A stretch of DNA of 63,864 bases, filler included, from Lophium mytilinum (taxonomy: Eukaryota), in NCBI GenBank assembly GCA_010093605.1. It is 8 parts of 5 records of this genome, joined end to end, with 100 filler letters (N's around TTAATTAATTAA, not from the genome) between each part and the next. Parts side by side here need not be neighbours in the genome. Positions count along the whole stretch, not along the records: positions 1 to 20,535 come from MU004193.1; 7 more parts are not named here. One strand, written 5' to 3'. The position numbers and the translations under genes were made by a program. Of the stretch, positions 1,740-37,685 are shown one piece after another; the stretch's first letter is position 1, and every line of letters begins with the position of its first letter. Under the pieces are notes generated by a model. It worked only from the letters and a program-made list of their open reading frames with translations, was not told the DNA's origin and did no database searches.

Positions 1740-2889
1740 TATAAAATAACCTTCTATCTCCTTCTAATTTTCTTTTCTTTTCTTACCCTTTACTCTACTA
1801 GTATTACTTAGCTACTTATTTAAGCTTATACTATTATCTATCTACTATTCTAAGCTAACGCTAGCTTACTCTTTTATACTTTAACTACCTATCTATCTAC
1901 TATCTACTACTACTTAAACTTCTATTCCTTTTACTTTTAAAGTAAGTAAGTTACTATAATAGATTTTTATTTATACTAACTAGTATATAGCTTTAAAATC
2001 TAAACTCTAAAAAAAACCTTTTAGCTAAGTTCTTTTTATAACGCTTTTATTCTATCTAACGTTCTACTTTTATTCTAACTCTAGTAACTCTTTTTTCTTA
2101 TCTAACTCTTTAGCTTAAACTCTCTATCTAGGTAATACCTCTTTTTTATCTAACTTTATAGGGTTTCTATAACGCTTCTATTCTATCTAACTATCTAGCT
2201 TTACTTTTTACCTTCTAACTCTATTTACTCTATCTATCTATCTAGCTACCTTCTTATACTTTAGTAATTTTTCTATAGTAAGTTATTTCTTTAGATTCTT
2301 TCTTATACTCTTTAGTATTAAGCTAATATATATTTAGAATAGCTAAACCTTTAAAATAGACGCATTACTATCTAATAGTAAGATTAATACTGCAGAAGTT
2401 ATAGACCTAGTCTATAATTTAGAATATAATCTAGAATATAAGATTATAATCTATAAAAGTTGTAATATAGTTCTAAATCCCTTAGCTAATATTAAAGAAC
2501 ATTTAAACCATAAGTATAATATTACTTCTTCTACTACTTCTAATATAGATAATCTATATAAAGACTTAAAAGACTTAGAAATTTCTAATAAAGAGGATAT
2601 TTCTATACCTTCTAATTATAGTATTTACTTTGCTAGCCTACCTATAGTAGAAGAATTTAAGTGTACTATTAAAAAGAATAGTAATTTACCTAAATGCGGC
2701 TTTTTTACTAGTAGTAAGAAAGTACTACATGTACACTTTAATAAAATATATAATCTTAATAATATCTATAAGAATATAGATTTTAATCTAATAGGAGAGT
2801 CTAATATATTAATGTAAACATTCTTTACTAATAATAGAAATATTAGATACTTTATTAGTAGTCTATCTAGACTAGTTGCTATAGATCAG
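1740..2889 (+). pseudogene. DUF3505/OrsD-like zinc-binding N-terminus of a telomere-linked RecQ helicase (TLH)-type gene, truncated
   Basis: Frame at ~2419-2860 reads LEYNLEYKIIIYKSCNIVL...KEHLNHKYN...FKCTIKKNSNLPKCGFFTSSKKVLHVHFNKIYN...LM*TFFTNNRNIRYFI. De-RIPed this matches the DUF3505 pattern (ICxxC...HLxxxH...C...C...H...H...QxFF...RYF). GTAAGT introns at ~1942 and ~2277. Start position uncertain. Confidence 0.7.
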
Positions 2890-2959
2890 CTATATTATAG
2901 AGGCTAGAGGGTTAGGGTTAGGTAGGGAGAAGCAAGTTTAACATAGAGAAAATCAACCT

Positions 2960-3915
2960 TTAAGAATTGCGTGCAGCATAACCTTGCACCGCCGCATTTA
3001 ACCACCACAACGTGAAATAGAGTATGCATGCAAAGAATAATACTTAGAACGCAATGCAATAGCGTTCTATTAACTTTGATTTAATTTACAAGCTGTGGTG
3101 GTGGCTTAAGGTAGGTATAGAGAGGCCGTAGGGTGCGCAGGCATAGAATGGAAATTACTTAAAGGGTTTAGCGTAAGAACAGCCTCGCGCTTAAGAATTA
3201 GTGCAACTACTACTGCATGCAACTACTATAACGTAGTATAGAAGAAATATATAAAGGATTATATATAATATGTAATACAATAGCAATCTATTAACTTAGA
3301 ATTAATATGCAGGCTATAGTAGTAGTAGCAGTTACATATAGAGGTAAGATTCTAAATAATAGAAGTTACTTAAAGAGTTTAGCGTAATGCTAGCCTTACA
3401 CTTAATAAAGACCTTAACCAGCGCTGCATGGAACCACTATAATATAAGGTTAAAGATATTTACAAGGAAAATTACTTATTATATAATGCAACAGCATTCT
3501 AGCAATTTAGAAATATTTTACAGGCTGTAGTTATAGCTCTAGGTGGGTGCAGAGGGTAGAAGGGTAAGGGAAGAGGGCAGCCAGCAGCGTAGAGTATAGC
3601 CCTATAATTAAGCAGCCTTTCTACCGCTGCATATAATAACTTCTAGATATTAAGATACTATAATAGAGCTATAATACTATATATAGTATACGTAATTAAA
3701 TTTAAAGCATTATAGAAAAGGCGAAGTCCTAGTAGTAGGTGCCTATAGAGGGTAATAGATATAATAGAAAGAGTTTTACGTTATAATAGCCTTGCCTTAG
3801 CACAGGTTGCTGCTAGATAGTATTCTTACGTAATAGAAATTTTAGCCGCATTAAATAAAATATATAAAGTAAAGGGCAGAATACAGTTTATATAATATTT
3901 ATAGATAAAGCAATT
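2960..3915 (+). repeat. Subterminal degenerate tandem repeats, ~200-220 bp period, 4-5 units
   Basis: Anchor CYGCAT at ~2994, 3215, 3426, 3629 and 3848; shared blocks CAATAGC..TCTATTAACTT, ACAGGCTGTRG and TTACTTAAAGRGTTTAGCGTAA, clearest in the first three units. Confidence 0.65.
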
Positions 3916-4141
3916 AACAGGGCTACCGCAGGAAGCCTTCCTGCTAGGGCCCTTCCCCAGCGACCTTAACCGAGTGGCCGTATCCGTAAGGGGTGTTAAA
4001 ACGGGTTAGGCGGGGTAAGCCCTATAATAAGAATGTTAATAACTCCTTGTTTTTAACTAATTACACTCCCTAACCGCTTTCTGCTCCTTAGCTCTATATT
4101 CTAAACTATTATCCCCCTTACTACTATACCTAGTAGTTAGC

Positions 4142-7100
4142 ATGGGACGCCCCCAAAAGTACTAGAATAAAGAAGAGCGAAAAGTAGCTAAATTACGTTT
4201 AATAGTGGATTTGAACCGACGCAAGAGAGATAAAAAGAAGAGGGCTGTAGACTAAACAGCTGCAGCAGGAGAGGCTAGTAAGCCTACTCCTACTTCTATT
4301 CTAGATCCGTTTCTAATTATCTTTAAAAACCCTAGAGGTCTTTCTAGTATAAATATTAGGGCCCCTTATCCTACCCGCCCTGCGCCCACGCCCTTTTAAC
4401 AACTAATTGCACCTTAGGAGCCTTTAGAGGAAACTATTGCACAACTTATAATTAGTATATCTTTTATAATCTTCTAGTATTTACGGTTAGGTTCTAATAA
4501 ACTTAAGTAGAACCCGTCTTAATAGAAGAATTATTACCTTCTACCTCTACTTAATCTACGCAATACACTCCTCCGCAGCGGTCTACCTATAGTAGTACCC
4601 GTTCTACTATTCCTTCTATATCTACCTAACCTATGTAACCTACGTAATATACTTCTCTATAGTAGTCTACCTATAGTAGTATCTATTCTACTACTTCTCC
4701 TCTATCTACTAAATCCACCTAATATTCTACTCTAGGGCGGGCTACTTATAGTAGTACTTATTCTCTCGCTCCTCTAACCTTTTAACCTACTTAACTAATA
4801 TAACTTTCTTATACCTAGCAGTCTACTAGCAGTAGTACACGCTCTAGTAAGTTAAGAGCGGCCTAATATATACCTGAAATTTAAAGCAATATAGAATTAA
4901 CGGAAGCTGTAGAGTAAGATTAGAGTAATAGTAGTAAGTATGCTATTATATAGACTATTAAGGGAGCAGCAGTTAAAGAAGAAGAAGAAGCGGCTAAAGA
5001 AAGCAAAGCAAATAAAGAAGTAGCCTAAGTAGATAAAGAAGTAGAAGAGGCAGTATTAGAGTTACTATTACCTGCATCTTCCGCGTTATCTTCTTATATA
5101 CCTGCGTTACCACCGCCTCTAGATGCTAGAGAGGTGTTGCCCTCTCTATTACTACCTTATAGCGTAGGGACACCTTAGTAAGCCGCAAATAATAATAATA
5201 GAGCTCCGGGCTAGGTTCTACCCGCTATATACTATCTCTATAAAGCGTTTCTTAAACCCGCAGCTATACTATATATATATACAGGCGTATATACTATCCT
5301 TGCCCTCTAGAATACTCTATAGACGGCTATAATACTACGCGCAAGTTTACGCGCTTAATAAACTATAGCGGCTTCTACTTCTGTACAACTAGAACTAATA
5401 ATACAATGCTAAATACTAGCCCTTATTACTGTATTACTACTCTACGTACTTGCGCAAATAACTAATAAAGAGATTATAGCGGAATTATTCTTAGCGCAAT
5501 AAAATAAGGCTGTAGAAGTGCTCTCTAGAATAGACGCTGCGGAATAAATAGATAAGGAGGAAATGCTAGCTAATATAAGTCGGTTTATGCAACTAGCGCA
5601 TAACAACGGTTGGGTTTAGATAGAGTGGTACGCTGCCTTATTATCTCTCCGCCTAACGCCAGTAACTGAGGTTGTAGAAGAGGAATTTACCTAATTTAAG
5701 AATAAGGTAGAAGCAGGTATAGATGTAGATAAGGTATTAGATAATAGAGTTAAAGAGGGTAGAGAAGGTATATATACGCAAGGACAGCAAGACACTATAG
5801 ATAAATTACCGGGTTTACTTAATAAAGTTACGCTGGAGAATTAAGGCAGTAGGGTAGATAATACAGCCTTAAATAGTAAAGGCAATAGCAAGATTATAGA
5901 TAAAGTTATAGATAAGATAGACTCTAATAGGTAAGTATTATAAGCTCTACAGTTTATATAAAGCTAATATACGTAGGCATAATAATCTATTAGTAAATAC
6001 TCCACATGCAGTAAGTATAATCTAATTAGTATTAGAAGTCCAGTGTACTTACTATATGTCTTAACTCTTTCTATTTAGATAATATAGTAGCTAATATTAT
6101 AATATAGTAAGTAACTATACAATAATTCCTTAGAGCAAATCTCTTAGCCAAGTTACTAGCTTTCTCCTAGCTTAGAACCTTCCCTTCTAACAAGAGCCTA
6201 TTACAGCTAATGCAGCCTTCTATTTAATAAGCTAACTAGAGCTATTATAGAGAGAGGATAATCCTAACAACTTTAATAATGTTTTATAGAAATTAATATT
6301 AAGCGGAGAAACTAGTAATATAGAAACTCTAAGGCTTAGTTTTATAAGGTCTAAAGCTAGCTTTATAGTAAATAAAGAGATTAAAATCTAGCAAGTATAT
6401 AACATTAATAGCGTTATTATCGGCATCTCTACTTTAGCGGCCTATAATTTATACTTCTTACTATCTCTACAACCGTTCTTTCTCTAAAGTATTACTTAAA
6501 ACTAATATATTATAATACGCGGCTATAAGCTCTATATAATAAAGTAGCTTTATATAGGGCACGGGTGTAAGCATTAATTTAAAACTTATGTGTTTTTCCC
6601 CTAGATGCCGACACTAAATAAGTAGAAGGGCGACACTTTGCATCTACTAGATACAATGCAAGCAGCTTAGCTTAATAATATTATCTTACCTGCAGTAAAG
6701 TATACTCTAATACCCGATAAGTAGCAGTATATACTATATAGTTTTAATATTATACGGGGTAAAGTAAGCGTTAAGAAAGAAAAATATATAATATTATCTA
6801 GAGACTCTTATATTAATACTAAGTATACAATTCTATAGTATTAACTCCGAGAATTCTGGGACCAAGTTCTTTACAACGCAGAAAACTTTGCAGGAACGGA
6901 TACTATACCCGAAGATTTATTTAAAGGAGTATTTCTAGTAGTCTTAGGTTATAATCTAAAAATAGTATATAAGTCCTTAAGTATAATTTAAAGCAGGGAT
7001 TAGCTACTATGTACTTTAACCACTACTTTTAATAAAAACCTAATTAATATACTAGATAAGGGGATATAGGTTAACTATAGATATAAAGATGTCCTAACTA

Positions 7101-9290
7101 CTAATTAGCTAGATACTGGGGTTACCCTTCTACGTAAAACTAGCTGCAATAACCACTAGGCCACTTACTTCTATAATAGCGAAAAAGAAAAGATTTATAT
7201 AACATTATACCCCTACTATCTTACCTAGGGCGCGTTATCTCTAATAGTAGAGCTCTAAGCAGGCAACTATAGCCGTATTAGTAGTATAGCATATAATAAA
7301 ATCTATAATAGTAATAAGATTATGCTTAAGTTACCTGTTAAGGATATTACGCCCTTTTGTAATACTTAACTAGAAGCTCTTGCATTCTTAACTAAAATAA
7401 TTAAGCGGTAGTTTAAAGTAGCAGGTGGCTCTAGAGGATTATTAAAAAGAAAACAGCTTTAGGATAGTCTTGCTGCTATTCTCTAACGCCACTATACTAT
7501 ACTCTGGAGAGACAGACACTTATTCTATAGGGTTTAAACCGAGTTCTAAGTACTTCTTACTATACTTAAGCAACTTAAAGAAAGCGCAAGTCCCGAATTT
7601 ACTATAAAGGATGGGCTGGATAATAGTAGCGAGCCTTATTACCCCTACTGGGTTCTTTCTATAGAAGAAGTTAATGCCTTTACTATTGCAAACCTTAATT
7701 GCTAGGTATTTCTTTTCTAGGTACTGTCTCTTTAGGTTACCCCCGGGCGTAATGCTAGGCATATAGTAACACTAGATAAATAGCTAGTAAATAGTTATTT
7801 AGCATCTCTTTATATCCGCCTTGCGTAAATTACTGCTGGATGTAGTAATCCCACTTAATTATCTATACTGTGGAAAAAAGAGTAGATAAATTAAAAAGAC
7901 CCCCGGAATCCTGTAACCTTATATAGCCTTAGGTTATTAGACTCCCTTAAGAAGTATAGCATAGCTTAGCTAAAGTTAGAGTACTTAGATTAGATAATAA
8001 TGCCCCTATAACTTAGCCCTTAAGGCGTTAATTAACTACAAGCCGGCCTTAGAAATTAATTCCAAGCTACGTTTACTAAAGCTCGGATCTAGGTATCTCT
8101 TACTAGGGAGGATATAGAGATGCAGTATCTATAGTATGGTATTATAGTATAGTACACGCTAGCTATTTAACGCAAAAATAGGACTAAAGTGTAAAAAGAT
8201 TGGCGATTAGCACCGCTATGGATAGGTAAGGCAGCTGCGCTTATTATTAAGGCATACTATACCGATATATACGAGCTTCTAAGTAGACAGTATATAGGAG
8301 AAGACGGAAATACTAAGACGCGACGGGAGAGTAAAGAACTACGCGACTAATTTCTTAAGAGTATTCTAAATAGATCTATAGTTGCGCTTTATCCTAATAT
8401 GCTTATAAAGCTATATAGAAAGTTAGAACTTATAGTAAGCTACGCCTACGTGCGGAATATAGCTAGAAATAGTAATATAAATTATCTAAGGCACTTAACT
8501 AGACGCTAGATTAATTAAGTCTGGCCGCTGTTTAATATTATAGATCTAGCTGCAGAAACTTAAAAATGGAACAACAGTTCCTTCTGCATAAAATTGCGAA
8601 GATTAAATGCAATAATTAGAAACGAAGCGTTACTAAAAACAGTAGAATAATTCCTTAATAATCTATAAGCAAGAGCTGCCTTATTACTCTAGGTTCTTCT
8701 AAGATATAATAATAATAAAATTTTAACCACGCGTTAAGCTAAATAAAACAACTCTAAAGATACATAAGATAATATTAGGGGAAGAGATGCAATTATAAAT
8801 ATATAGTAGATCTATATGCAACTACTAAATAGCTACTACTATAAGGTAGCCTAACTAAGCTAATATATTAAAGAACAGGCTTAAGGGGGGGTAGTTAACC
8901 TTAGCATGGACGTAGTTATAAAGGAAGTATAGAATATAACCTAGGGAAGCCTAGGAAAGTTAAAGATAATAACAATAGAGGATAATATTATAGGCCCTAG
9001 GGGTTAAGTTAATCTAAAACATGTCTAGCTTAGGTTTAAGCACTGTACACTAAATAGCCCAAGGGCTTATTTAGGCAGGATTCTAATAATTAAAGAATTC
9101 TGGAATTATTTAGTAATATAGAAGGAGCAAGAGGGGGATATAAGTAGTTAGTTATTAGATAAAGAGTATAAGTATAAAGAGAGTTTAGGTAACTATAGCT
9201 TAGAAATAGAGGACTTGGAGGACTCGGGGTAAGAGGCCTAGAAAAATAAGGCTTAAGTAGAAGAGTTCTAAGAAGCATATAGATTTAAGC
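4142..9290 (+). pseudogene. ORF1: large RIP-degraded multi-exon gene of unknown family (basic N-terminus, S/T/P-rich repeats, acidic region, globular core ~6170-8700)
   Basis: ATG at 4142 (MGRPQKY*NKEERKVAKLRL...); GTAAGT introns at ~5931-5976 and ~6107-6170. The long exon's stops are mostly RIP-type and de-RIP to YDIDS, YVFFP, QHVPHSF, GHDLK, PFCNTQLEALA and FYGVRTEF, with at least one frameshift. Confidence 0.65.
4555..4850 (+). repeat. Coding tandem repeat in ORF1 (~75-85 bp, ~4 units)
   Basis: Recurring CTACYTATAGTAGTAYY..TTCT at ~4583, 4667 and 4742, with a more degenerate unit at ~4823. Confidence 0.55.
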
Positions 9291-10374
9291 GTTAATAGGT
9301 AGACTGGCAGGGGCGGCGTTATAAAGAAGAATTATTAACGAGGAAGGTAGTAAAGTAATTAGTATAAGATGTAAAGGGCGTTAGTAGGAAGGCTTCTAGC
9401 TAGGCTCTTATATAGTACGCAAATGCTTATCTAGTAGGTGCGTAGCGGTGATATATATAAGAAGAGAGGTAATAATAGGCGTGCTTAATATAAGTAGTAA
9501 AGGGCCCTAGTAGAAAGGCTTTCTAGTAAGACCCTTATACTGTAGGCAAATAGTTATATAATAACGCGCGATGTTCTATTAACCTATCTTAGCGCAGTGC
9601 TATATTACTAGAACTAGGTAATACGTAGCGTAGTATTGTAGATTAACCGTAAATATTCGCATATTAGTAAAATTAAGTAAAACGCCGATATATTTATACC
9701 CGCGATATTTTAACCTTATATAATATATAGCCATTACGTTAACCTTAAGAGTTAACTTAAGTAGTTTACTATTAAAGGCTTAGCGTCTTAGCGGCCGGCG
9801 GCTATTAGCCCGGCCGCCTACAAACTTATCCGCCGCCTAGTAGCTTTAACTTTCTTACTTCTATACTAACCTCTCTTTCTATACTACTGTACCCCTATTA
9901 CTTCCACTTATCTAGCTACCTGCGGAACGGTTGCGCGCTAGACCCTTACTTGCTAGACGATAGTTAGCAGCTTTCTAGCTACGTTGGAGCCGTAATTGGC
10001 TAGTTTTAGGCGTCCTTTTAGCTAGCGGTTAAGCCTTTTAGTAAGTTTGCTGTCTAGTAGGTAAAATTAAGTTACGTTATAGCTAATTCTGCTAACAGGT
10101 TTATTCTATTGCAATTTCTCTAAGAGTGGAGTAAGGTAAGCGTATTATAAGGATTGTTGCAGGAAGGCTTCCTGCTAGGGCCCTTTGCTAGTCTTAGTAG
10201 ATTAGTCTGCCTTAATTTTAAAGATGCGGCGGCAGGAAATATTAAGAAAATAATAATACTAAAAATACCCGGTATAGTGCAAAGGGTCTTGGCAGGAAGC
10301 CTTTCTACTAGGGCCCTTTGCCTGCCTTCTTTCTTCTATTATTTAAGATAAGCTAACATATTAATAGGCTGGCC

Positions 10375-13300
10375 ATAAATACCTTAAGTAATGGGGACCC
10401 TAGTAAAGCAGTAGTAAAGGTTGCATCCCTGCGCATATTACCTGTAACCGACCTAGTAGATAGCTATAAGAAATAATCTACTTCTTCTAAAGTGCTAGAA
10501 GATTTAAATTCTACCTCCCTACTAGTTACTAAATTGGGGGTTGATGCCTATAGCGATTTAAAGCGCAATTAGCCGGCCACTGTAATAGATCTGGAGACGC
10601 TTATATTAGTAAATAGCAAAGTGGTTTATCTAGATAGTAATAACTATAGTAATAACTCTAATGTCCCTAAGAACTCTAATAAAGAGCAGGAGAAGCTTTA
10701 AGCGCTAGTTACTGGCACTAGAAAAGATAAAGAGTTAGAGAAGTTGTGGGCCTTAGTAAACACGCTGTATGCTAGTAGAATAAAGTTGGCTAAGCTTTAT
10801 AGTTAAATAAAAGTAGAACTTAAAGCAATTCTAGCTAAGCCTAATTTCTAAGCAATTTAGAACAAGTATAAGGATAGGTATTTAGACCTAAAGCGCGCCG
10901 TGCATAGTTAGAATTAAGGGGCTAGTTTTGCTACTGTCCTAAACGCTTTTAAGACTGGCGAGTTGTATAATCTGCAGTAATATACTACTTCTTAGCCTAA
11001 GACGGATAACTATAAACCCGTGGATTAGGCAGCTTAATTTATTAGTTAATGCTTTAATTACTACTGGAAGCGGTTTAGTGGGTTTTTGTATAACCGCGCT
11101 AATATTACTAATAACGAAGCGCTTAGAATCTTCTTTAAATTAAAGAAAAATATAGAATTTAAGAGTGGCCCGTCTTAAGCTAGCAGGACTGCCTATACTA
11201 AGAACTAAATTAAGATACAGGACGTTCTTTAAAAAATAAAGCTTAGTCTAGCACCGGCACCTAAGACCCCGGCTAAAACTATTACTTATAGCAGGAAGGA
11301 TGTTAATAGGAAGCCTTCCCGTTAAGGCCCTTCTAGGCCTCCCTATTAGCAGTCGCCCTCTTGTTTTACTAAGGAGGAACTCGCGGCCATTAATATAGAG
11401 GTTAACGCAGACAACCCTATCTAGGGGTTATCTAAAGAGGAAATTGCTGCAAACCTAGTTAATAAGGAGAAAGGCAACGTTAATGTTACTAGTACTAAGT
11501 ACATCACCGGCACTATAAAATAGAAGCTTAAGTTAGTAATTGCGCATGCTAAGCGCACTGGAGTAATAATTAACCGGAACTCGTTAAAGTTTCAATACAA
11601 CGCATATCGGGTAATTAGATAGATGGCAGGAGATTTTATATATACCGTTAAATAGCACCTAAACATGCGCGCTGCAGATCTTAATAAGGACAAGTATGCT
11701 AATCTAGACGGTATTAAATATGCCTAAGACATAGAGGCTAATATAAGGGCTACCGCTATTAATATAAAGGATATTATCCCCTTTACTATATTAACCGCGG
11801 CAGATCTTATAACGCAGAGTGCACTCCGCCTTCTAATAACTAATAAAGCCTATTAGCTAGATAACCTAAAAGAAGCAATAAAGGCCCTACGCATTTATAA
11901 CTATCAGGAACCCCGCCTTATTATAATAAATGGTAATATTTACTTAAGGTAGTAGCAGATTACCGGAGCTTACTATATATACTGTATTATATAGAAAGGC
12001 TTTCTTAGTGGGGCCTTAATTATAGATAAGGTTAGTATTAGGAAGACATTTTTAATAGCTACCCTTATTAGACATATAAGTAATTTCTCTTTAAAGAGTA
12101 TTAATAGGAAGCCTTCCTACTATCCCCCTAATAGTTTCTCTTAGCATCTACTAATTTAATTATAGCTTATTACTAAGCGCCAGCGCAAAGTTGCGGATAA
12201 GAAAGACCCCGGGCCGGCGAAGCCCTTTCTTTTTCTTGTGCCTCCCGTTTTAGTACACTAAATAGTAAATAAACTTACAAAGTTTAGTTCTAAACTTAAG
12301 CTCTATATCTATTTATTAAAGGGCTAAGTTGCTTTCTATAGCGCTACGTTTCTATACAACACCTTAACTAGGGACTATCCCTTATTTAATACTAAAAACA
12401 AGGCCAATGCTAAGAGCATTATAATCGCTAGCTATTGGGTAATAGCTAGTCGGCACGGTCCCCAGCCCGCATTAAAGTGGTATAGCGATAATAATCTTAC
12501 TAAGCTAAAGAATTGGGTTAAATATTGCCTAAGCTCTACCTGGCCCGGTCTCTTAAGTGGCTATTTCAACGTCTAATTTATAGATAAGTGCTAGCTTATT
12601 AAAAGCGACTAAGTAAACCTCCACCTAACCGCCTTATAGCTTTACTTAGACTTTACTGTACTCTATAGTGGGACCCCGCTATATATAGGCATTACTAATA
12701 TACCTGCTTACATGTCTTTTATAGAACTGAGAGATAAGTATCTATAATTCCGCACGTACCGCTTAACACCCGGTAAAGCTAAGTTTGTTCCGGGTACCGA
12801 TAATCTATTTAAGCTTCCCGACAACTATTTAGGTATAATTTTCTGGTATACACGCAAGGCTTTTAAAAATTTTATTCTGCCTTTATTTAACCCGTAAGTT
12901 ATTATATAAAGGGCCCTAGCAGGAAGGCTTCCGGCCAGGGCCCTTATCTCTTTTCTTATTTACTTTAATTTTCTAATATTTCTCCAGGATTACACAGGGG
13001 CTTTATTTACGCTTAATTTTTAGTAAGTATATAATTGCTCGCTTATACCCTTCTACATGCCCGAATAATTCCACTAATCCTGCCACCCAAATTAGAGGAT
13101 TACTTCTGTAGTTAGTTACGCGAGTAATTAAGCTACAGCCTATAAAACTAGGCTATATTATCTATGCTAATAAATCACCAGCCTACCTTAAGTTATTAAT
13201 GGTTTCTACTAAGAACCGCGTAGGCCAGCGCACCTATGCATTTAACGCATGCTCCGTGCATGCTCTTAACCTTATAAGCACTGCGCCATTTTTAGTCTAC

Positions 13301-15748
13301 TTTAAGCGCGCCATAATAGCATATCCGCAAAAGAAGGTCTTAGATTTAGAGGGTAATAAGATTAAGGATGGCCCGAAAATTATCCCTCTTAAGAATAATG
13401 GCGGTTACTGGTTAAAGGAAATTAACGTTTTGCGAGGCATAATAAAGTAAATTGCCCGGAATAAGGACGTCTAAACTAACCCTAATTAGAAAGACTTTAA
13501 AGTAAAGTCCACATTCTTTTATTACGTTGTTGCCCTTTTTATCCGCGATGCCCCTAAAGTGGCTGCACTACTATACTGTTTGGCTGACGACGTTATTAAG
13601 CGTATGGAGAAGGTTATTATCTAGACTAACTACCTAGATAAGTAAATAATTCTTACTAAGATTATTAACTATTATAAAATGGATGCTTATATATTAGCCT
13701 CTAATCTCTCTACTACTGACCGGGATAACCTTATCTTGGTGTTTAACAACCCCAACTCTAAAGTAAAGATTCTTATTACTAGTTACTAGGCTAATAGAGC
13801 TAGGCTTAATCTATAGTCTACTTACTATAATATATATCTTTTTAACCCTGCAGGCTCTATTTAGATTAAGGAGTAGGCGATAGCGCGTTTCTATAGGATT
13901 GGCCAGAAGTTTACTATTATGGTAACCGCGTTCTTTATCTAGAATATATTTAATGCCTTTACTCTCTCGCGCTAGGTATAGATAGCGCTTCCCGGTCTTA
14001 CTGCTACGTTAAACACTAACTAGATTAAGGTAGAGGGGACCTCTAAGGAAAAGCTAACCCTAGATAGCTAGTATGCGTAGGTAACCTATAATAATAAGAG
14101 CATCGCACCCCGCCTTATTATAGGCGAAATAGATATTTTAAATATGCCAGTAGAATTACACGTTAAGCGCTTTAACTCCCTATAAGACATTCTTGTATTT
14201 CTAATAACTCTTACGCAAGGCAATATAACTTTTTAGTCTAGTGGGTTTAGTAATAAGTTCTAAGAAGAACAAGCGTACGAATTTACTGAATCGGAATTAG
14301 AAGAAGAGTAGGAGAAGGGTGCGAGTAGAGCGCCTAAGAAACCGCGTGTTAATAAGCTAGGTTTAAGACTTAAGCGTTATCCTGCAAGCAGTAAGTTCGC
14401 CCTTATAGATTCTAGCGGGAAGGCTTCCTGCTAGGGCCCTACTTGCCTCTTTATACTTTGCTAATCCGTGTTTTATAGTAAAAGCTACCCTAAAGCCGAA
14501 GCTAAAGACGCTAGAGTAATAAAATAGTAAAGCTTTAAAGTAGAAGCGCAAAGCTAGTGCTGCACTAGCGGCTGCCGTTAAAAAGCGTAAGCCTAACCCT
14601 AAGTCTGCTGTTATGGTTAAAGACTCTAATTCTGCTAAATCTAATATGCCCACCCCTATAAAGAGCACTACTAGAAATACTTATAGCCCTTTTGTCTGTT
14701 AATATAGGCTGGAGCGTAACCCTTTACGTTAAGTACCCGCTATTTTTAGTAATATAAACGGCGACAACCCTTTTAGTAGGCTAAATAGTAATAACTCTAA
14801 AGGCGAAGAGTATAAGAATAATACTTTATTTCTTGCAAAGTATATAGGTAAGAATTTATTCTAGGGCCTTTTTAGGAAGCCTTCCTGCTAGGGCCCTTTA
14901 GTATTGCCTATTATATTACTTAAGTGCTAACTATTATAGTAGCTCCTACTTCCGCCCGTTAACCTACTTTAACTCTACCTTCTGGCCCTCTTAGTACCTT
15001 TAATAGACGCCTTGTTAGGACCCCTTCTATAGACCCCGTCCCGTCGCCTAATACATAGAAGAAGAGGCAGCGCGGAATGTCTACTATCTTCTTATAGGAT
15101 TCTATAGATAATCTAGTTTTTTATTTACTACTAAAAGCTAATATTAATATAAATAATAAGTAGAATAAGGAGAATATTAAAACCCCTAACGTTAATATAG
15201 AGAACGTCCCGTTTAAGACTAATAAGTAAAACGGGGGGTATCTTAATAATTACCTGGATTTTACTACTACGCTATCTAAAGTTGCCTTTAAGCGTAATAG
15301 CAACTACAGTAGTAACTTAGACGACCCGCCGGAATTTATAGAAGGGGCCTTGCAGCCAACCCTAAAGACTATGTCCTCTAGTAATACTAATAAGGGTTAA
15401 AAGCGCTAAGGCGTAAAAAAGAAGCCCACTGTAAAGAAGGATAAAGCAGCTAAGAAAGACCCTATATTTAAATCCCTTATGTATTGTCCGTATAAGTATA
15501 TAATAGAGGAAGAGATTACTAAGTAGCGCCCTTAGCGTAAAAGGAAGGCTGCTAAGAAGAAAGCTGCTGTGTAGAAGTCTATAAACTCTACTAGACTAAA
15601 AATAGACCTATGCAGGCGGAAGAATAATTCTAATGTTGGCTGACTGCCCGTAGTATTAGGTGCAGATACTAACCCTAATAGTAAAGAGGATAGCAGTAAA
15701 TTAGAGGGGACTAGCATAGCACTAGAGAAGTCTAATAGCGAGGTATAA
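10375..15748 (+). pseudogene. SNF2-family (SF2) ATPase/helicase gene, RIP-inactivated
   Basis: Ordered motifs: Q motif LR**QITGA (~11944); motif I GALIIDKVSIRKT = GALIADEVGIGKT (12010-12048); motif II FIDKC*LIKS = FVDECQLIKS (~12577); motif III LYSGTP (12661); IV EKVII*TNY (~13607); V ILITSY*ANRARLNL* = ...GAGLNLQ (~13769); VI E*AIARFYRIGQK (~13871). Introns at ~12076-12165, 12894-12987, 14391-14478 and 14848-14939, plus upstream introns 10041-10098 and 10136-10367. Confidence 0.92.
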
Positions 15749-16119
15749 CTAGTAGAGTCTTTATAGGAAGGCTTTCTATAGGGGCCCTTACTCTACTTTT
15801 TAGATTTAGTTTAGCATCTCTTAATGTTTTTTTCTTTTTCTTTCTAACGGTTCTAATTAGGACTACTTTCCTTGCTATTAGTTTATACCTACTTACTTAG
15901 TGCTACTAACTTTTTACTATTCTAATTTCTTGCTTGCGTTCTATCCTCTACCCCCTAATAGTTAGCACTACTCTATAGTAGTAGTACACTTTATGCCCTT
16001 AAAATCTCCTAGTTTATATTTAGCCTCTAGATAGCGGCTTACTTAACTATAGAATATAGCGTAATATTTACTACTATAACTGTGCCTTATGTATCTTATG
16101 CGTAATATAATATTTATTT

Positions 16120-17400
16120 TATTTATCTATGTTGTAGGGGGCGGTCTTATCCGCCGTAGTTTATATAGTCGGGGAGGGTAATTGCATTCTAATGCCGCTC
16201 TATTATATCTATACTATTAGTATATGCTCCCTATCTTTTTTATAGTAAAGAATCTACTATTATATACCCTGTAATTTAACCCTCTTTACTAATATTAGTT
16301 ATACGGCTGGGCTGAGTCCTCTCTATAGACTCTATCTATTAACACGCTGTATGCGACTTTATTCTACCTATAGTTTTCTAAAGCGTGTATTATTGCATAA
16401 TACCTAAACTAACCGGAAGGAGAGTTATTTATACGTGTTGTTGTTAAGTTTTTAGCGTACTAGGCGGCGGAAGGTAATTTAGGTGTCGTAGTTGTACTTT
16501 CTAGTTTATCGGCGATGTATTTGGACCTGCTTATTATTAGCAAGGATAGTAATTCTTAAGGGGTTACAGTCTTACCGTTTATTACTTTTAATATAACTTT
16601 CCTCCTCCTTGCAGTTATAAATAGTCTCTATATTATAAATAGAACTGCTCTTTTATTCTAGTATTTTTCTTTACTTCTATTCTTATAGCCGTCTTAATAA
16701 GCGCTTTAGCCGTGTAAGCTTTCTTCTTACAACTAAATCTAGGGTAGTATTTACAACCTTGCGCCTAGACAGGGTATTAGGCGTAGTAAGGGGAGAAGCT
16801 AACCGCTCTATTAGGATATATGTATTAGGCAGACGTAGATATATCTGCCCCTGCTAAATATTATCCTCGGCGTTTAGAGTTGCTGTGCTGCTGCGCGTTA
16901 ACCTTAGTGTACCGGGCTGTATTTTATATACTTTAGCCTGGTTTAGAGTTGCAGCCGTCTCTACGTTAGGTTAGGCCGCTTCTTATCTCGCAAATATCCG
17001 CCGGAACGCTCTAGAAAGGACGTATATAGTATACTAATTAAGACTTACGTATAGTATTGTGCGTGGGCTGCTACTATACTATAAGGGGTAGGTAGTAGTT
17101 AGAAAAAGGTTTAATGCGCTAGTTTCTATTAATCTTAGCATATTACGTGCTAACTACTTGTATTATACCTACACTTATAATTAACCTTTAGAGGTTAACT
17201 CTATATACTATATATAAATAGCAGCACTAAGAGTTTTATTTTATTACTATACTATACGTATATTTTACCTTAGGCGGGACTAGTAGGTCCCTATAATGTA
17301 TAGTTTATATAACTATACTCTACGTTGCTTTAGCGCCCGCCCAATTTACTTTTCCTCTCTTTTCTTACTCCTTTAGCTTATTCCTCTCTATACTATAGCT
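16120..17400 (-). pseudogene. Unidentified RIP-degraded gene with introns
   Basis: Long near-open minus frame (ETAATLNQAKVYKIQPGTLRL...RRKLTRLKRLLRR); minus-strand introns GTAAGA...GCTAAT...CAG (~16527-16575) and GTAGGT...GCTAAG...TAG (~17126-17172). Confidence 0.45.
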
Positions 17401-18237: not shown

Positions 18238-18386
18238 CTAATCTATTCCTATCTCTACGCGCTTATTAGTAAATACCCAACTCTTTATCCAGCGCTGCCA
18301 GGCTCTTACTATCCCCCAACCTATCTTCTCCTTTAATAGCAACGCGTCCCTGCCCTTCTAGAACTGCACCCTAGCCCTCTACGCCG
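18238..18386 (+). repeat. 149-bp direct duplication of the start of the dsRBD gene
   Basis: Colinear with 19331-19479 (…CGCTTATTAGTAAAYACCCARCTCTTTATCYAGCGCTGCCAGGC…CTCTACGCCG); differences are mostly transitions. Confidence 0.9.
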
Positions 18387-19330: not shown

Positions 19331-20301
19331 CTAACCTATCTCTATCTCTATACGCTTATTAGTAAACACCCAGCTCTTTATCTAGCGCTGCCAGGCCCTT
19401 GCCATCCCCTAACCTATCTTCTTATTTAACGGCGACGCCTTTCTACTCTTCTAGAACTGCACTCTAACCCTCTACGCCGCCGGCTCCCCCCACTTTCTTA
19501 CTACTACTAGCCTCTTTACCTCTAAGAAAGAAGCTAAAGAAGCCGCCTCTACCTTTAGCCTTGCCCTTCTCTCCTCTCTTAAAGCCTCGGGCATAGTCTC
19601 TACCCCTAGCAAAACTAAAAAATATACTCTAACTCTAACTCCTACTACTACTACCCCTGAGGAACCCTAGGAAAACTTTACTAGTATTTTTATAGAATTC
19701 TGCTAAGCCTCTAAAATCCCCGTTCTAACCTTTACTAAGTTTAAAACCGGCACCTGCTTCTCCGCCGAGCTATTACTGGCCTCGCACCGCCTGGAGAACG
19801 CCCCCTTTAGCGGCTGCGCTATGCTCTACCCGTTAAAGAAAGCGGCTTATGCGGCTATAGTAAGGGAGGCGGTGCTCTAGCTGCGCGTAGAAATAGCTGC
19901 CCGCTATATATAAGCCCGCGTCCGTAAAGAAGTAGTAGAAGACGGTAGGGGGTTCTAAGAACGCCGCGGTGCAGCTACCGGGTAGTGTAGCAGCGCGGGT
20001 GCTGGCGCTGGCGAGCGAGCTAGGGCTACCGCAGCCGGAGTATTAGTAGGCGGCGCTAAGTGCGCTAGCGCCGGGGCTATCTATAGTAAGTAGTTTGTTC
20101 CCGGGGAGTAGAGTAGGCGGGGAGGATAGGGTAGTAGTAATAGTAAGGCATGTAGTTAGAAAGAAGGCGGCGAGGGAGAAGTATGCGCGGTTAATAGGAA
20201 TGGAGTTAGAAGGAGTATTAGAGAGGAGGAAGGGGGTGTTAGAAAAGGTGTTAGAGAAGGGAAAGAGGGAGGTAGAGATAAGAGAGGAGGATAAGAACTA
20301 G
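19331..20301 (+). pseudogene. Double-stranded RNA-binding-domain (dsrm) protein relic, 2-3 dsRBD-like repeats
   Basis: Domain 1 QLFI*RCQALAIP*PIF...FTSKKEAKEAASTFSLALL; domain 2 ENFTSIFIEFC*ASKIPVLTF...CFSAEL...YPLKKAAYAAIVREAVL*L; third partial VRHVVRKKAAREKYARL (= ORF-track 20095-20301). KKxA(K)xxAA helices are typical of dsRBDs. Confidence 0.75.
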
Positions 20302-20419: not shown

Positions 20420-20535
20420 GTTAGGGTTAGGGTTAGGGTTTTAGGGTTAGGGTTAGGGTTAGGGTTAGGGTTAGGGTTAGGGTTAGGGTTAGGGTTAGGG
20501 TTAGGGTTAGGGTTAGGGTTAGGGTTAGGGTTAGG
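20420..20535 (+). repeat. Telomeric (TTAGGG)n tract at contig end
   Basis: ~19 TTAGGG units with one extra TT at 20439-20440, G-rich strand pointing to the contig end, free of RIP-type changes. Confidence 0.95.
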
Positions 20536-35217: not shown

Positions 35218-37685
35218 GAAAGGCTTTCTACTAAGACCCTTTATACTATGCTAGGTATTTTTAGTATTATTATTTTCTTAATATTTTCTGCTACTATATC
35301 TTTAAAATTAAGGTAGACTAATCTACTAAGACTAGTAAAGGGCCCTAGTAGAAAGCCTTTCTATAATAATTCTTATAATACGCTTACCTTACTTTACTCT
35401 TAGAGAAATTATAATAGAATAAACCTATTAGTAGAATTAGCTATAATATAACTTAATTTTACCTACTAGATAGTAAACTTACTAAAAGGCTTAACCGCTA
35501 GCTAAAAAGATACCTAAAATAAGCTAATTGCGGCTCCAATATAGCTAGAAAGCTACTAACTATTATCTAGTAAGTAAGAAACTAGCGCGCAACTATTCCG
35601 CAGGTAGCTAGATAAGTAGAAGTAATAGGGGTATAGTAGTATAGAAGGAAAGATTAGTATAAAAGTAAGAAAGTTAAAGCTACTAGGCAGTAGATAAGTT
35701 TATAGGTAGCCGGGCTAATAGCCGCCGGCCGCTAAAACGCTAAGCCTTTAATAGTAAACTACTTAAGTTAACTCTTAAGGTTAATATAATAGCTATATAT
35801 TATATAAGGTTAAAATATTACAGGTATAAATATATTAGCGTTTTGCTTAATTTTACTAATATATAAATATTTACGGTTAATCTATAATACTATGCTATAT
35901 ATTACCTAGTTCTAGTAATATAGCACTATACTAAGATAGGTTAATAGAATATTATATATTATTATATAACTATTTACCTATAGTATAAGGGTCTTGCTAG
36001 AAAGCCTTTCTACTAGGGCCCTTTACTACTTATATTAAGCACGCCTATTATTACCTCTCTTTTTATATATATTACTACTATATATCTACTAAATAAGTAT
36101 TTATATACTATATAAGAGCCTAGCTAGAAGCCTTTCTACTAATACTCTTTATATCTTATACTAATTACTTTACTATCTTTTTTATTAATAATTCTTCTTT
36201 ATAACGCCGCCCCTACTAGTCTACCTATTAACGCTTAAATCTATATACTCTTTTAGAACTCTTCTACTTAAGCCTTATTCTTCTAGGCCTCTTACCCTAA
36301 GTTTTCTAAGTCCTCTATTTCTAAGCTATAGTTATCTAAACTCTCTTTATACTTATACTCTTTATCTAATAACTAACTATTTATATCCTCCTCTTACTCC
36401 TTCTATATTACTAAATAATTCTAGAATTCTTTAATTATTAGAATCCTGCCTAAATAAGCCCTTAGGCTATTTAGTATATAGTACTTAAACCTAAGCTAGA
36501 TATATTTTAAATTAACTTAACCCCTAGGGCCTATAATATTATCCTCTATTATTATTATCTTTAACTTTTCTAGGCTTCCCTAGGTTATATTCTATACTTC
36601 CTTTATAACTATATCTATGCTAAGGTTAACTACCCCCTCTTAAGCCTATTCTTTAATATATTAGCTTAGTTAGGCTATCTTATAGTAGTAGCTATTTAGT
36701 AGTTATATATAGATCTACTATATATTTATAATTATATTTCTTTCTCTAATATTATCTTATATATCTTTAGAGTTATTTTATTTAGCTTAATATATAGTTA
36801 AAATTTTATTATTATTATATCTTAGAAGAACCTAGAGTAATAAGGCGGCTCTTGCTTATAGATTATTAAGGAATTATTCTACTATTTTTAGTAACGCTTT
36901 ATTTCTAATTATTATATTTAATCTTTATAATTTTATACGGAAGGAACTGTTATTCTATTTTTAAGTTTCTGCAGCTAGATCTATAATATTAAACAGCAGC
37001 TAGACTTAATTAATCTAGCGTCTAGTTAAGTGCGTTAGATAATTTATATTACTATTTCTAGCTATATTCCATATATAGGCGTAGCTTACTATAAGTTTTA
37101 ACTTTCTATATAGCCTTATAAGTATATTAAAATAAAGTATAACTATAGATCTATATAGAATACTCTTAAAAAATTAGTTATATAGTTCTTTACTCTTCTA
37201 TTATATCTTAGTATTTCTATCTTCTTCTATATACTATCTACTTAGAAGCTTATATATATTAGTATAGTATGCCTTAATAATAAGTATAGCTACCTTACCT
37301 ATCTATAGCGGTGCTAATTACTAATCTTTTTACACTCTAGTCCTATTTTTATATTAAATAGCTAGCGTGTACTATACTATAATGCTATACTATAGATACT
37401 ATATCTCTATATTCTTCTTAGTAAGAGATATCTAGATCTAAGCTTTAGTAAATATAGCTTAGAATTAATTTCTAAGGCCGGCTTATAGTTAATTAACGCC
37501 TTAAGGGCTAAGTTATAGGGGCGTTATTATCTAATCTAAGTACTCTAACTTTAGCTAAGCTATACTATACTTCTTAAGGGAGTTTAATAACCTAAGGCTA
37601 TATAAGGTTATAGAATTCTAGAGGTCTTTTTAATTTATCTACTCTTTTTTCTATAGTATAAATAATTAAGTAGAATTACTATATC
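35218..37685 (-). mobile_element. Inverted copy of SNF2-element segment ~7839-10305
   Basis: Colinear reverse complement of the ORF1 3' part, the intergenic region and palindrome copies (~35218, 35338, 35987, 36114). Confidence 0.92.

Follow-up and report, generated by a model that had tools for sequence, protein, structure and literature searches.

A 37-bp palindrome repeated along a degenerate SNF2-bearing repeat element of Lophium mytilinum is probably an old, maintained cis-element

Why should a mutated repeat carry the same short palindrome eleven times, in the introns, in the flanks and once in an exon of a single gene? The question is raised by a stretch of 63,864 bases from the fungus Lophium mytilinum (GenBank assembly GCA_010093605.1), eight contigs joined by N linkers, which we call the window. 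Its contig 1 (positions 1–20535, with plus-strand TTAGGG telomere repeats at its end, 20421–20530) holds a repeat element with two gene-like parts, an upstream open reading frame (ORF) region termed ORF1 and a gene of the SNF2 family, through which the 37-bp palindrome recurs. Chance repetition does not account for the 37-mer, which is probably a cis-element that this family of repeat-borne SNF2 genes has long maintained.

The window is AT-rich repeat DNA of a filamentous ascomycete that has undergone repeat-induced point mutation (RIP). Every contig bears the RIP signature (TpA/ApT 1.65–1.89; (CpA+TpG)/(ApC+GpT) 0.06–0.46), and with the standard code just one ORF of at least 100 aa overlaps contig 1; in such DNA, stop codons are expected within genes. 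Across the window (1–63864), TGA and TCA are almost missing and, with TGA as the sole stop, six frames stay open through whole contigs, a side effect of RIP stripping TG and CA. The element is a high-copy repeat: a single sample, sequenced in two DNA runs, contributed ~2,900–3,050 short assembly pieces that matched 3800–16000 at 80–99% likeness, differing chiefly by C>T and G>A. A run presumed to be RNA had no piece on the stretch, a result that is neutral as to expression. Its copies in the window are RIP-mutated and hence dead, so that any function of the palindrome needs relatives as its test ground.

The preliminary description of this DNA had listed 11 copies of the palindrome in contig 1, and searches by core, right arm and weight matrix found all of them in place (starts at 3918, 9374, 9500, 10149, 10282, 11296, 12094, 12909, 14405, 14862 and 15753). 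Searched as a full 37-mer with up to three mismatches, the sole match was the 12909 copy (0 expected). The core GGAAGSCTTCC with at most one mismatch occurred at ten sites against 0.35 expected, all inside 3931–15776, and the right arm with up to three mismatches at 13 sites against 0.03 expected, 11 of them in 3.9–15.8 kb and two at 35.3 and 36.0 kb. A symmetric weight matrix run over the whole window gave 14 sites scoring 29.5–58.9 and no score between 12 and 29, while five Markov-random control sequences yielded 0, 0, 0, 1 and 0 matches. Because the 11 copies went into the matrix, its scores for them are circular; the core and right-arm searches are independent of it. Confinement to the element, which the preliminary description had proposed to test, held within the window: the matrix scan placed palindromes in the element and its contig 4 copy, and none in ORF1, in 15.8–20.5 kb of contig 1 or in the ~43 kb of other repeats.

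The contig 4 copy is one of the features needed here.

35218 to 37685, minus strand: contig 4, second partial copy of the element, the reverse complement of 7839–10305 at 90% identity.

Its palindromes at 36113, 35987 and 35338, with a half copy at the contig start (35218), correspond to the same four sites as the contig 1 copies in 7839–10305. In each DNA run, four assembly pieces break at 10164, the centre of the 10149 palindrome, with the left-arm variant of contig 4, and contig 4 itself begins mid-palindrome at 35218; the palindromes seem to break assemblies.

The 37-mer is a composite in which two self-complementary AGGGCCCT blocks flank a 17-bp core palindrome, GCAGGAAG-S-CTTCCTGC. Each arm contains one AGGGCCCT, an 8-bp word that is itself palindromic, and 10 of the 11 such words in the window lie inside copies. 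The centre base is G in six copies and C in five, and is the same in both element copies where they can be compared. Differences from the consensus, mostly of RIP type, number 48 in left arms and 29 in right arms (binomial p = 0.04), so the right arm is best kept, as proposed before, only in a weak sense. Covariation among copies was discarded as a test, because RIP alters mirror positions of a palindrome alike and thereby mimics compensatory change. The Rfam 15 covariance models gave no match at E up to 1 in 3500–16500 on either strand. Copies outside the coding-region introns are the following.

3918 to 3954, unstranded: palindrome upstream of ORF1; right arm perfect, left arm with five differences, no donor-like hexamer within 40 nt upstream.
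9374 to 9410, unstranded: palindrome between ORF1 and the SNF2 gene, GTATAA 12 nt upstream; first of a pair 126 bp apart.
9500 to 9536, unstranded: second palindrome of this upstream pair, ATATAA 12 nt upstream.
10149 to 10185, unstranded: palindrome in the unit 10136–10235 (GTAAGC...CAG, 100 nt), upstream of the probable start codon.
10282 to 10318, unstranded: palindrome in the unit 10272–10367 (GTATAG...GCTAAC...TAG, 96 nt), which ends 8 nt before the probable start.
11296 to 11332, plus strand: exon palindrome, translated in frame 1 as K D V N R K P S R stop G P.
15753 to 15789, unstranded: palindrome 5 nt behind the stop codon; GTATAA, containing the stop, 10 nt upstream.

Ten of the eleven copies fall within the presumed SNF2 transcription unit, the exception being that at 3918. 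A donor-like hexamer (GTAAGY, GTAAGA, ATAAGT, GTATAR or ATATAA) stands 10–18 nt upstream of nine of the eleven, and branch-site and AG signals follow. The four copies upstream of the SNF2 start each have such a hexamer 10–13 nt before them. The unit 10136–10235 is a 5' untranslated region (5'UTR) intron or a promoter module, and the two start-proximal units, which have full intron signals, may be 5'UTR introns; a 3' intron around the 15753 palindrome (15743–15860) is possible. The upstream pairs (126 and 133 bp apart) lie in 9350–9570 and 10125–10345, whose spacers align with some likeness, and the region upstream of the SNF2 start may have gained its second pair by duplication of a two-palindrome module.

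The remaining copies sit in introns of the SNF2 gene, which was modelled as follows.

10375 to 15748, plus strand: SNF2-family gene, broken by RIP-type stops; identified by Pfam on read-through frames, tblastn of 125 relatives and a gene model.
12076 to 12165, plus strand: intron of 90 nt with donor ATAAGT, CTAAT branch and TAG; palindrome at 12094–12130, from intron base 19.
12894 to 12987, plus strand: intron of 94 nt (GTAAGT...CTAAT...CAG) with the best-kept palindrome, 12909–12945.
14391 to 14478, plus strand: predicted intron of 88 nt (GTAAGT...CTAAT...TAG), frame 2 to 3; palindrome at 14405–14441.
14848 to 14939, plus strand: predicted intron of 92 nt (GTAAGA...CTAAC...TAG), frame 3 to 2; palindrome at 14862–14898.

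Read through its stops, 10381–12897 matches the SNF2-related domain PF00176 (E 2e-6, 27.6 bits; cut-off 24.9) and 12992–14398, damaged by RIP, weakly matches Helicase_C, PF00271 (E 1e-3, 19.5 bits, under the curated cut-off of 23.5). The gene thus has the SNF2-related domain followed by Helicase_C, as in SNF2 family ATPases, with the second domain below its cut-off. Its putative start codon at 10375 now reads ATA, from ATG by a RIP-type TG>TA change, and is backed by the aligned first residues of the relatives P0001 and P0048. The stop is TAA at 15746–15748, and the exons total 5010 nt or 1670 codons, a multiple of three.

All four coding-region introns of the model (90, 94, 88 and 92 nt) hold one palindrome each, starting 14–18 nt behind the donor; without these 37 nt they would measure 51–57 nt. 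Homology confirms two of them. The ATAAGT donor at 12076 is a RIP-type change of GTAAGT; single tblastn alignments cross 12076–12165 in frame with ~30 extra codons, and P0001, P0004 and P0048 all stop exactly there, their final 'VS' being translated GTAAGT. At the 12894–12987 intron, alignments of P0019, P0040 and P0108 jump from 12882 to 12986 and from frame 1 to frame 2, losing 2–8 residues (227 to 230, 612 to 621 and 194 to 202, respectively), and the ORFs of P0002, P0003 and P0125 end there. Within 10726–14062, the part covered by relatives, there are zero palindrome-free introns. Of the six copies that the preliminary description had assigned to SNF2 introns, those at 12094, 12909, 14405 and 14862 are in the coding region, while those at 10149 and 10282 lie upstream of the probable start at 10375.

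Relatives of the SNF2 gene were searched among 1.84 billion representative proteins. The search returned 124 relatives at E up to 1e-3, with the family-specific N-terminal part covered by P0001, P0004 and P0048 only; identity in the N-domain between relatives is 21–31%. As their ORFs were called regardless of introns, they run into introns and give a peptide view of what lies there. In the first intron, P0001 reads RGSARSLLERSL, of which 28 of 36 bases fit the palindrome consensus, a score reached or exceeded at 5 of 62,189 positions. P0004 reads ..RALGAFGEGFTKGP.. at this place (longer: ..RRALGAFGEGFTKGPF..), where the ends (RAL and KGP) and the core (E-G-F) match those encoded by the palindrome; owing to an apparent 10-nt insertion, this reading fails ungapped tests. 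The P0048 tail is too short for a comparison. In the second intron, P0002 reads ..KGGLQEAFLQPPL.. (longer: ..IKGGLQEAFLQPPL..), which fits the consensus at 27 of 33 bases, the single best of 62,314 positions, and is fully compatible with a perfect 37-nt palindrome, as are 42 of 372,384 centres.

The exon site gave a third view. The earlier claim that the 11296 copy is coding sequence stood: it is translated in frame 1, and the ORFs of three intact relatives are open there, the only invariant residues of this variable linker (K, K, S and P) being those encoded by the outer ends and core of the palindrome. Agreement with the consensus is 26, 25 and 25 of 36 bases in the three relatives (at least 25 at 43 of 62,189 positions), which are homologous and hence not independent cases; their palindrome compatibility, 14–16 of 18, is not significant alone. 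A like palindrome, back-translated from peptides, is thus apparent at two introns and the exon site of SNF2 relatives, in line with the earlier expectation that the motif is kept in related elements. If the peptide readings are right, the module seems old and maintained in distant relatives, and peptide positions kept among proteins only 21–31% identical point to long-term maintenance.

Wider searches added no relatives. Protein-guided scans with alignment A1 matched 589 stretches of metagenome contigs and 216 of viral contigs, with no relative in either set. The loose pattern AAGGGCCCT-N15-30-AGGGCCCTT occurred in 39 viral contigs, one match each, which we took for ordinary hairpins. The 17-mer core was found at no fewer than 120 metagenome loci, none of which had a tblastn match to SNF2 relatives; among the metagenome matches listed, the 45 longest palindrome extensions had a GC content of 0.52–0.77 and perfect pairing of at most 13 bases each side, and we read these loci as bacterial. 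As a query, P0125 found only P0005 and P0002, and P0001 found none of the longer proteins. Atlas at 0.92 returned solely unnamed or SNF2-fragment clusters, a lead at best. Separately, an SNF2 motif ..TLAxRHGPxAL.. at ~12430 (P0106, P0091, P0073, P0061, P0057 and P0047) resembles one frame of the palindrome at 27–28 of 36 bases, probably by chance, as the window has no palindrome there.

In what form might such an element act? The preliminary description had offered chiefly binding sites for a dimeric protein, or else RNA hairpins. The data support a maintained cis-element, either a DNA dyad or an RNA hairpin, and indicate no binding protein. The regular distance behind a donor-like hexamer is left unexplained by DNA sites and fits the RNA option better. 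Our tentative reading, which we hold possible short of probable, is that the palindrome is a hairpin signal in the primary transcript, placed just past the U1 site and read by a factor, that governs all introns or marks the transcript. Each transcript copy would fold to a stem of ~16 bp directly beyond the stretch that pairs with the U1 small nuclear RNA; a factor would recognise the stem by sequence and shape, and a single signal would thereby control the removal of all introns or mark the transcript. The folded hairpin would also leave the enlarged introns short in effect. By analogy, such a mode may be likened to the Mer1 intronic enhancer or to the regulated third P-element intron. Folding of six units as RNA gave the hairpin in five (z −2.8 and −2.1 for the best two, −0.7 to −1.3 for three).

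Several observations weigh against the hairpin. Only two of the six folded units are clearly better than shuffles, and intron 12076 has no hairpin fold now (z = +0.2). No loop identity is kept, the centre base being split between G and C, which is unexpected for an RNA protein that reads loops and suits insertion in both directions or a DNA dyad. Sequence as well as pairing is common to the copies, which equally suits a sequence-specific DNA binder, and changes tolerable as G-U pairs on the sense strand show no clear excess (30 sense, 22 antisense). The 3918 copy has no nearby donor and the 11296 copy no intron, while the four copies upstream of the start codon are placed like promoter sites. 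Moreover, the palindromes of the relatives were back-read from peptides, not from DNA. A broader version, which we regard as somewhat doubtful, is that the palindrome is an 'address label' long kept in every intron, both untranslated flanks and one exon, by which the element or its host recognises the transcript or the DNA; such a label might, for example, make the removal of all introns depend on a single factor or life stage.

The 37-mer could instead be selfish, a short hairpin insert that spreads locally in the gene family, survives where it is harmless and does nothing for the element. Less its 37 nt, each coding-region intron is of ordinary fungal size, so that the copies look inserted into existing introns, one copy stands in frame within an exon, the flanks of the units are only weakly alike, and the six-to-five split of the centre base is what insertion in either direction would give. 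The direct repeats expected of miniature inverted-repeat transposable elements or foldback insertions were sought in the bases flanking the palindromes, and 0 of 11 copies had a target-site duplication. Nor did an insert spread into the other 43 kb of repeats in the window or into ORF1, and within introns the palindrome begins at a regular place instead of being scattered. The core is apparently kept in relatives as distant as those described and at the exon site, whereas neutral DNA should be too short-lived for this unless the insert were active in every lineage. Selfish spread strikes us as possible, on the doubtful side.

Alternatively, the palindromes may be dyad sites in DNA for a dimeric protein of the element or the host, regulating or marking the element and confined to introns and flanks for want of room in coding sequence. 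Their symmetry around an indifferent centre base, combined with a sequence common to all copies beyond what pairing needs, is that of dyad sites, and each arm has its own 8-bp palindrome. Four copies crowd the last 1 kb ahead of the start codon, and one each stands upstream of ORF1 and behind the stop, a placement that would suit regulatory sites, as would the exon copy kept in relatives. One copy per intron and the fixed donor distance are left unexplained, however, and the more decayed left arms, relative to the direction of transcription, are not predicted for a symmetric site. A candidate binder was not found: the ORF1 pieces matched no Pfam family and had no homologue, the SNF2 N-domain matched no Pfam family, and no DNA-binding domain was seen in either, within the limits that RIP damage sets to such a search. 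DNA sites seem unlikely to us. Transpososome assembly and parS-like loading, both suggested earlier for a protein of the element, found no support.

It is more improbable still that all units derive from one hairpin-bearing intron multiplied within the gene, the palindrome staying recognisable because its arms correct each other. Such copying would explain the uniform build and length of six units (88–100 nt) and the slight likeness of flanks outside the 37-mer, where the mean local score downstream was 14.2 against 12.5 in shuffles and the observed score was reached by 3 of 300 shuffles downstream and 0 of 300 upstream. TGCCT, which occurs 21 times in all contig 1, is found five times within 35 nt behind palindromes against 0.35 expected and may be a second short motif of the unit.

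10186–10220, 10319–10353, 14442–14476 and 14899–14933: TGCCT-bearing stretches behind palindromes.

Whole-intron copying preserves direction, yet the centre base is split, and splice signals by themselves can account for the resemblance of the flanks. Two intron places are common to distant relatives, which makes the gains old, whereas introner-like elements are said to be young and to decay fast; moreover, no intron surrounds the exon copy or the 3918 copy. Chance or an assembly artefact as the origin of the repeats was ruled out by the pattern searches, the weight-matrix scan and the assembly pieces.

Beyond the palindromes and the SNF2 gene, the element and its surroundings contain the following.

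4200 to 9300, limits rough, plus strand: ORF1 region, with coding-like frames containing RIP stops, palindrome-free.

Further partial copies of the element exist in the window: contig 5 carries a copy of 4863–5799 (86%), and 15087–15563 is copied at the end of contig 3 (86%). DNA upstream of the element (2175–3298) is repeated in reverse in contig 5 (37786–38911, 67% identity), and given this repeat the unit may extend well upstream of 3.9 kb. In assembly pieces of both DNA runs, 5923 is joined to 12220 across 8–11 other letters; these pieces represent an internally deleted element copy elsewhere in the genome, and the joint is away from any palindrome. The interval from the SNF2 gene to the telomere contains a 149-bp direct repeat (84% identity) at 18238–18386 and 19331–19479, and no Pfam family was matched in six frames of 15.9–20.5 kb.

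Among known systems, Rickettsia palindromic elements and yeast mitochondrial GC clusters are likewise short palindromic inserts able to sit translated in frame in coding sequence. They are bacterial or organellar and scattered genome-wide, in contrast to the present palindrome, which is nuclear, fungal and, as far as the window shows, limited to one repeat. A functional analogy, and no more, is offered by the Mer1-dependent splicing enhancer of yeast meiotic genes, in which a short intronic signal near the donor lets one factor govern splicing, and by the third intron of the Drosophila P element, a mobile element that makes use of regulated splicing. Both rely on single-stranded motifs whose readers are known, whereas the present signal is a palindrome in predicted introns.

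The introner-like elements of Dothideomycete fungi are reportedly young, fast-decaying copies of whole introns in many unrelated genes. Our units resemble them in a length above that of ordinary fungal introns (88–100 nt), in complete donor, branch and acceptor signals (in the four coding-region units and two to three more) and in the hairpin of five of six folds. They differ in that introner-like elements are near-identical whole introns, whereas these units are only weakly alike outside the 37-mer; in that the former are recent, unshared gains, whereas the intron places at 12076 and 12894 are shared with distant relatives; and in that, within the window, the palindrome belongs to one gene family's element and its second copy and also occurs outside introns.

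Also near are the internally symmetrical sister introns and stwintrons of Hypoxylaceae, described in the part of the account covered here as symmetric whole introns with terminal inverted repeats of 45–55 nt joining donor and acceptor, found at new places in many genes (PMC8469720). As far as that part goes, they share with our units the setting of fungal spliceosomal introns around palindromes (theirs including two copies of a 10-nt palindrome), the lack of target-site duplications and a proposed role of the hairpin (PMC8469720). The arrangement differs from what the same part describes, since here a compact 37-mer lies in the 5' part of otherwise asymmetric introns of a single gene, from intron base 15–19 on in the four coding-region introns, with 35–42 nt behind it unpaired (PMC8469720). 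The host element itself resembles, by description, the X3X3R8 repeat of Parastagonospora nodorum (Hane and Oliver 2010, PMC3017866). In the passages covered, X3X3R8 is a many-copy, RIP-degraded repeat with Rad5/SNF2-like helicase genes and uncharacterised ORFs, features in which the present element is like it; a Rad6-type ubiquitin-conjugating gene is also attributed to it, and such a domain was not found here in Pfam scans (PMC3017866). A palindrome is not mentioned in those passages (PMC3017866), and we found no description of such a palindrome in open-access full texts.

How spliceosomal introns arise and spread is an open question, to which repeated introns with hairpins are central. In fungi, the cases known are young copies of whole introns in many genes. 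The present one looks different, being a small palindromic module that is private to one gene family, has a single copy at a fixed place in each intron and a further, translated copy, and seems to have persisted among distant relatives. If its maintenance holds, it would be either a new type of intronic control signal or a mini-parasite with an unexplained, strictly local spread; the address label, if true, would be a gene-private intronic signal of a kind not described for fungal nuclear genes. Either outcome would inform intron biology and the regulation of repeat-borne genes.

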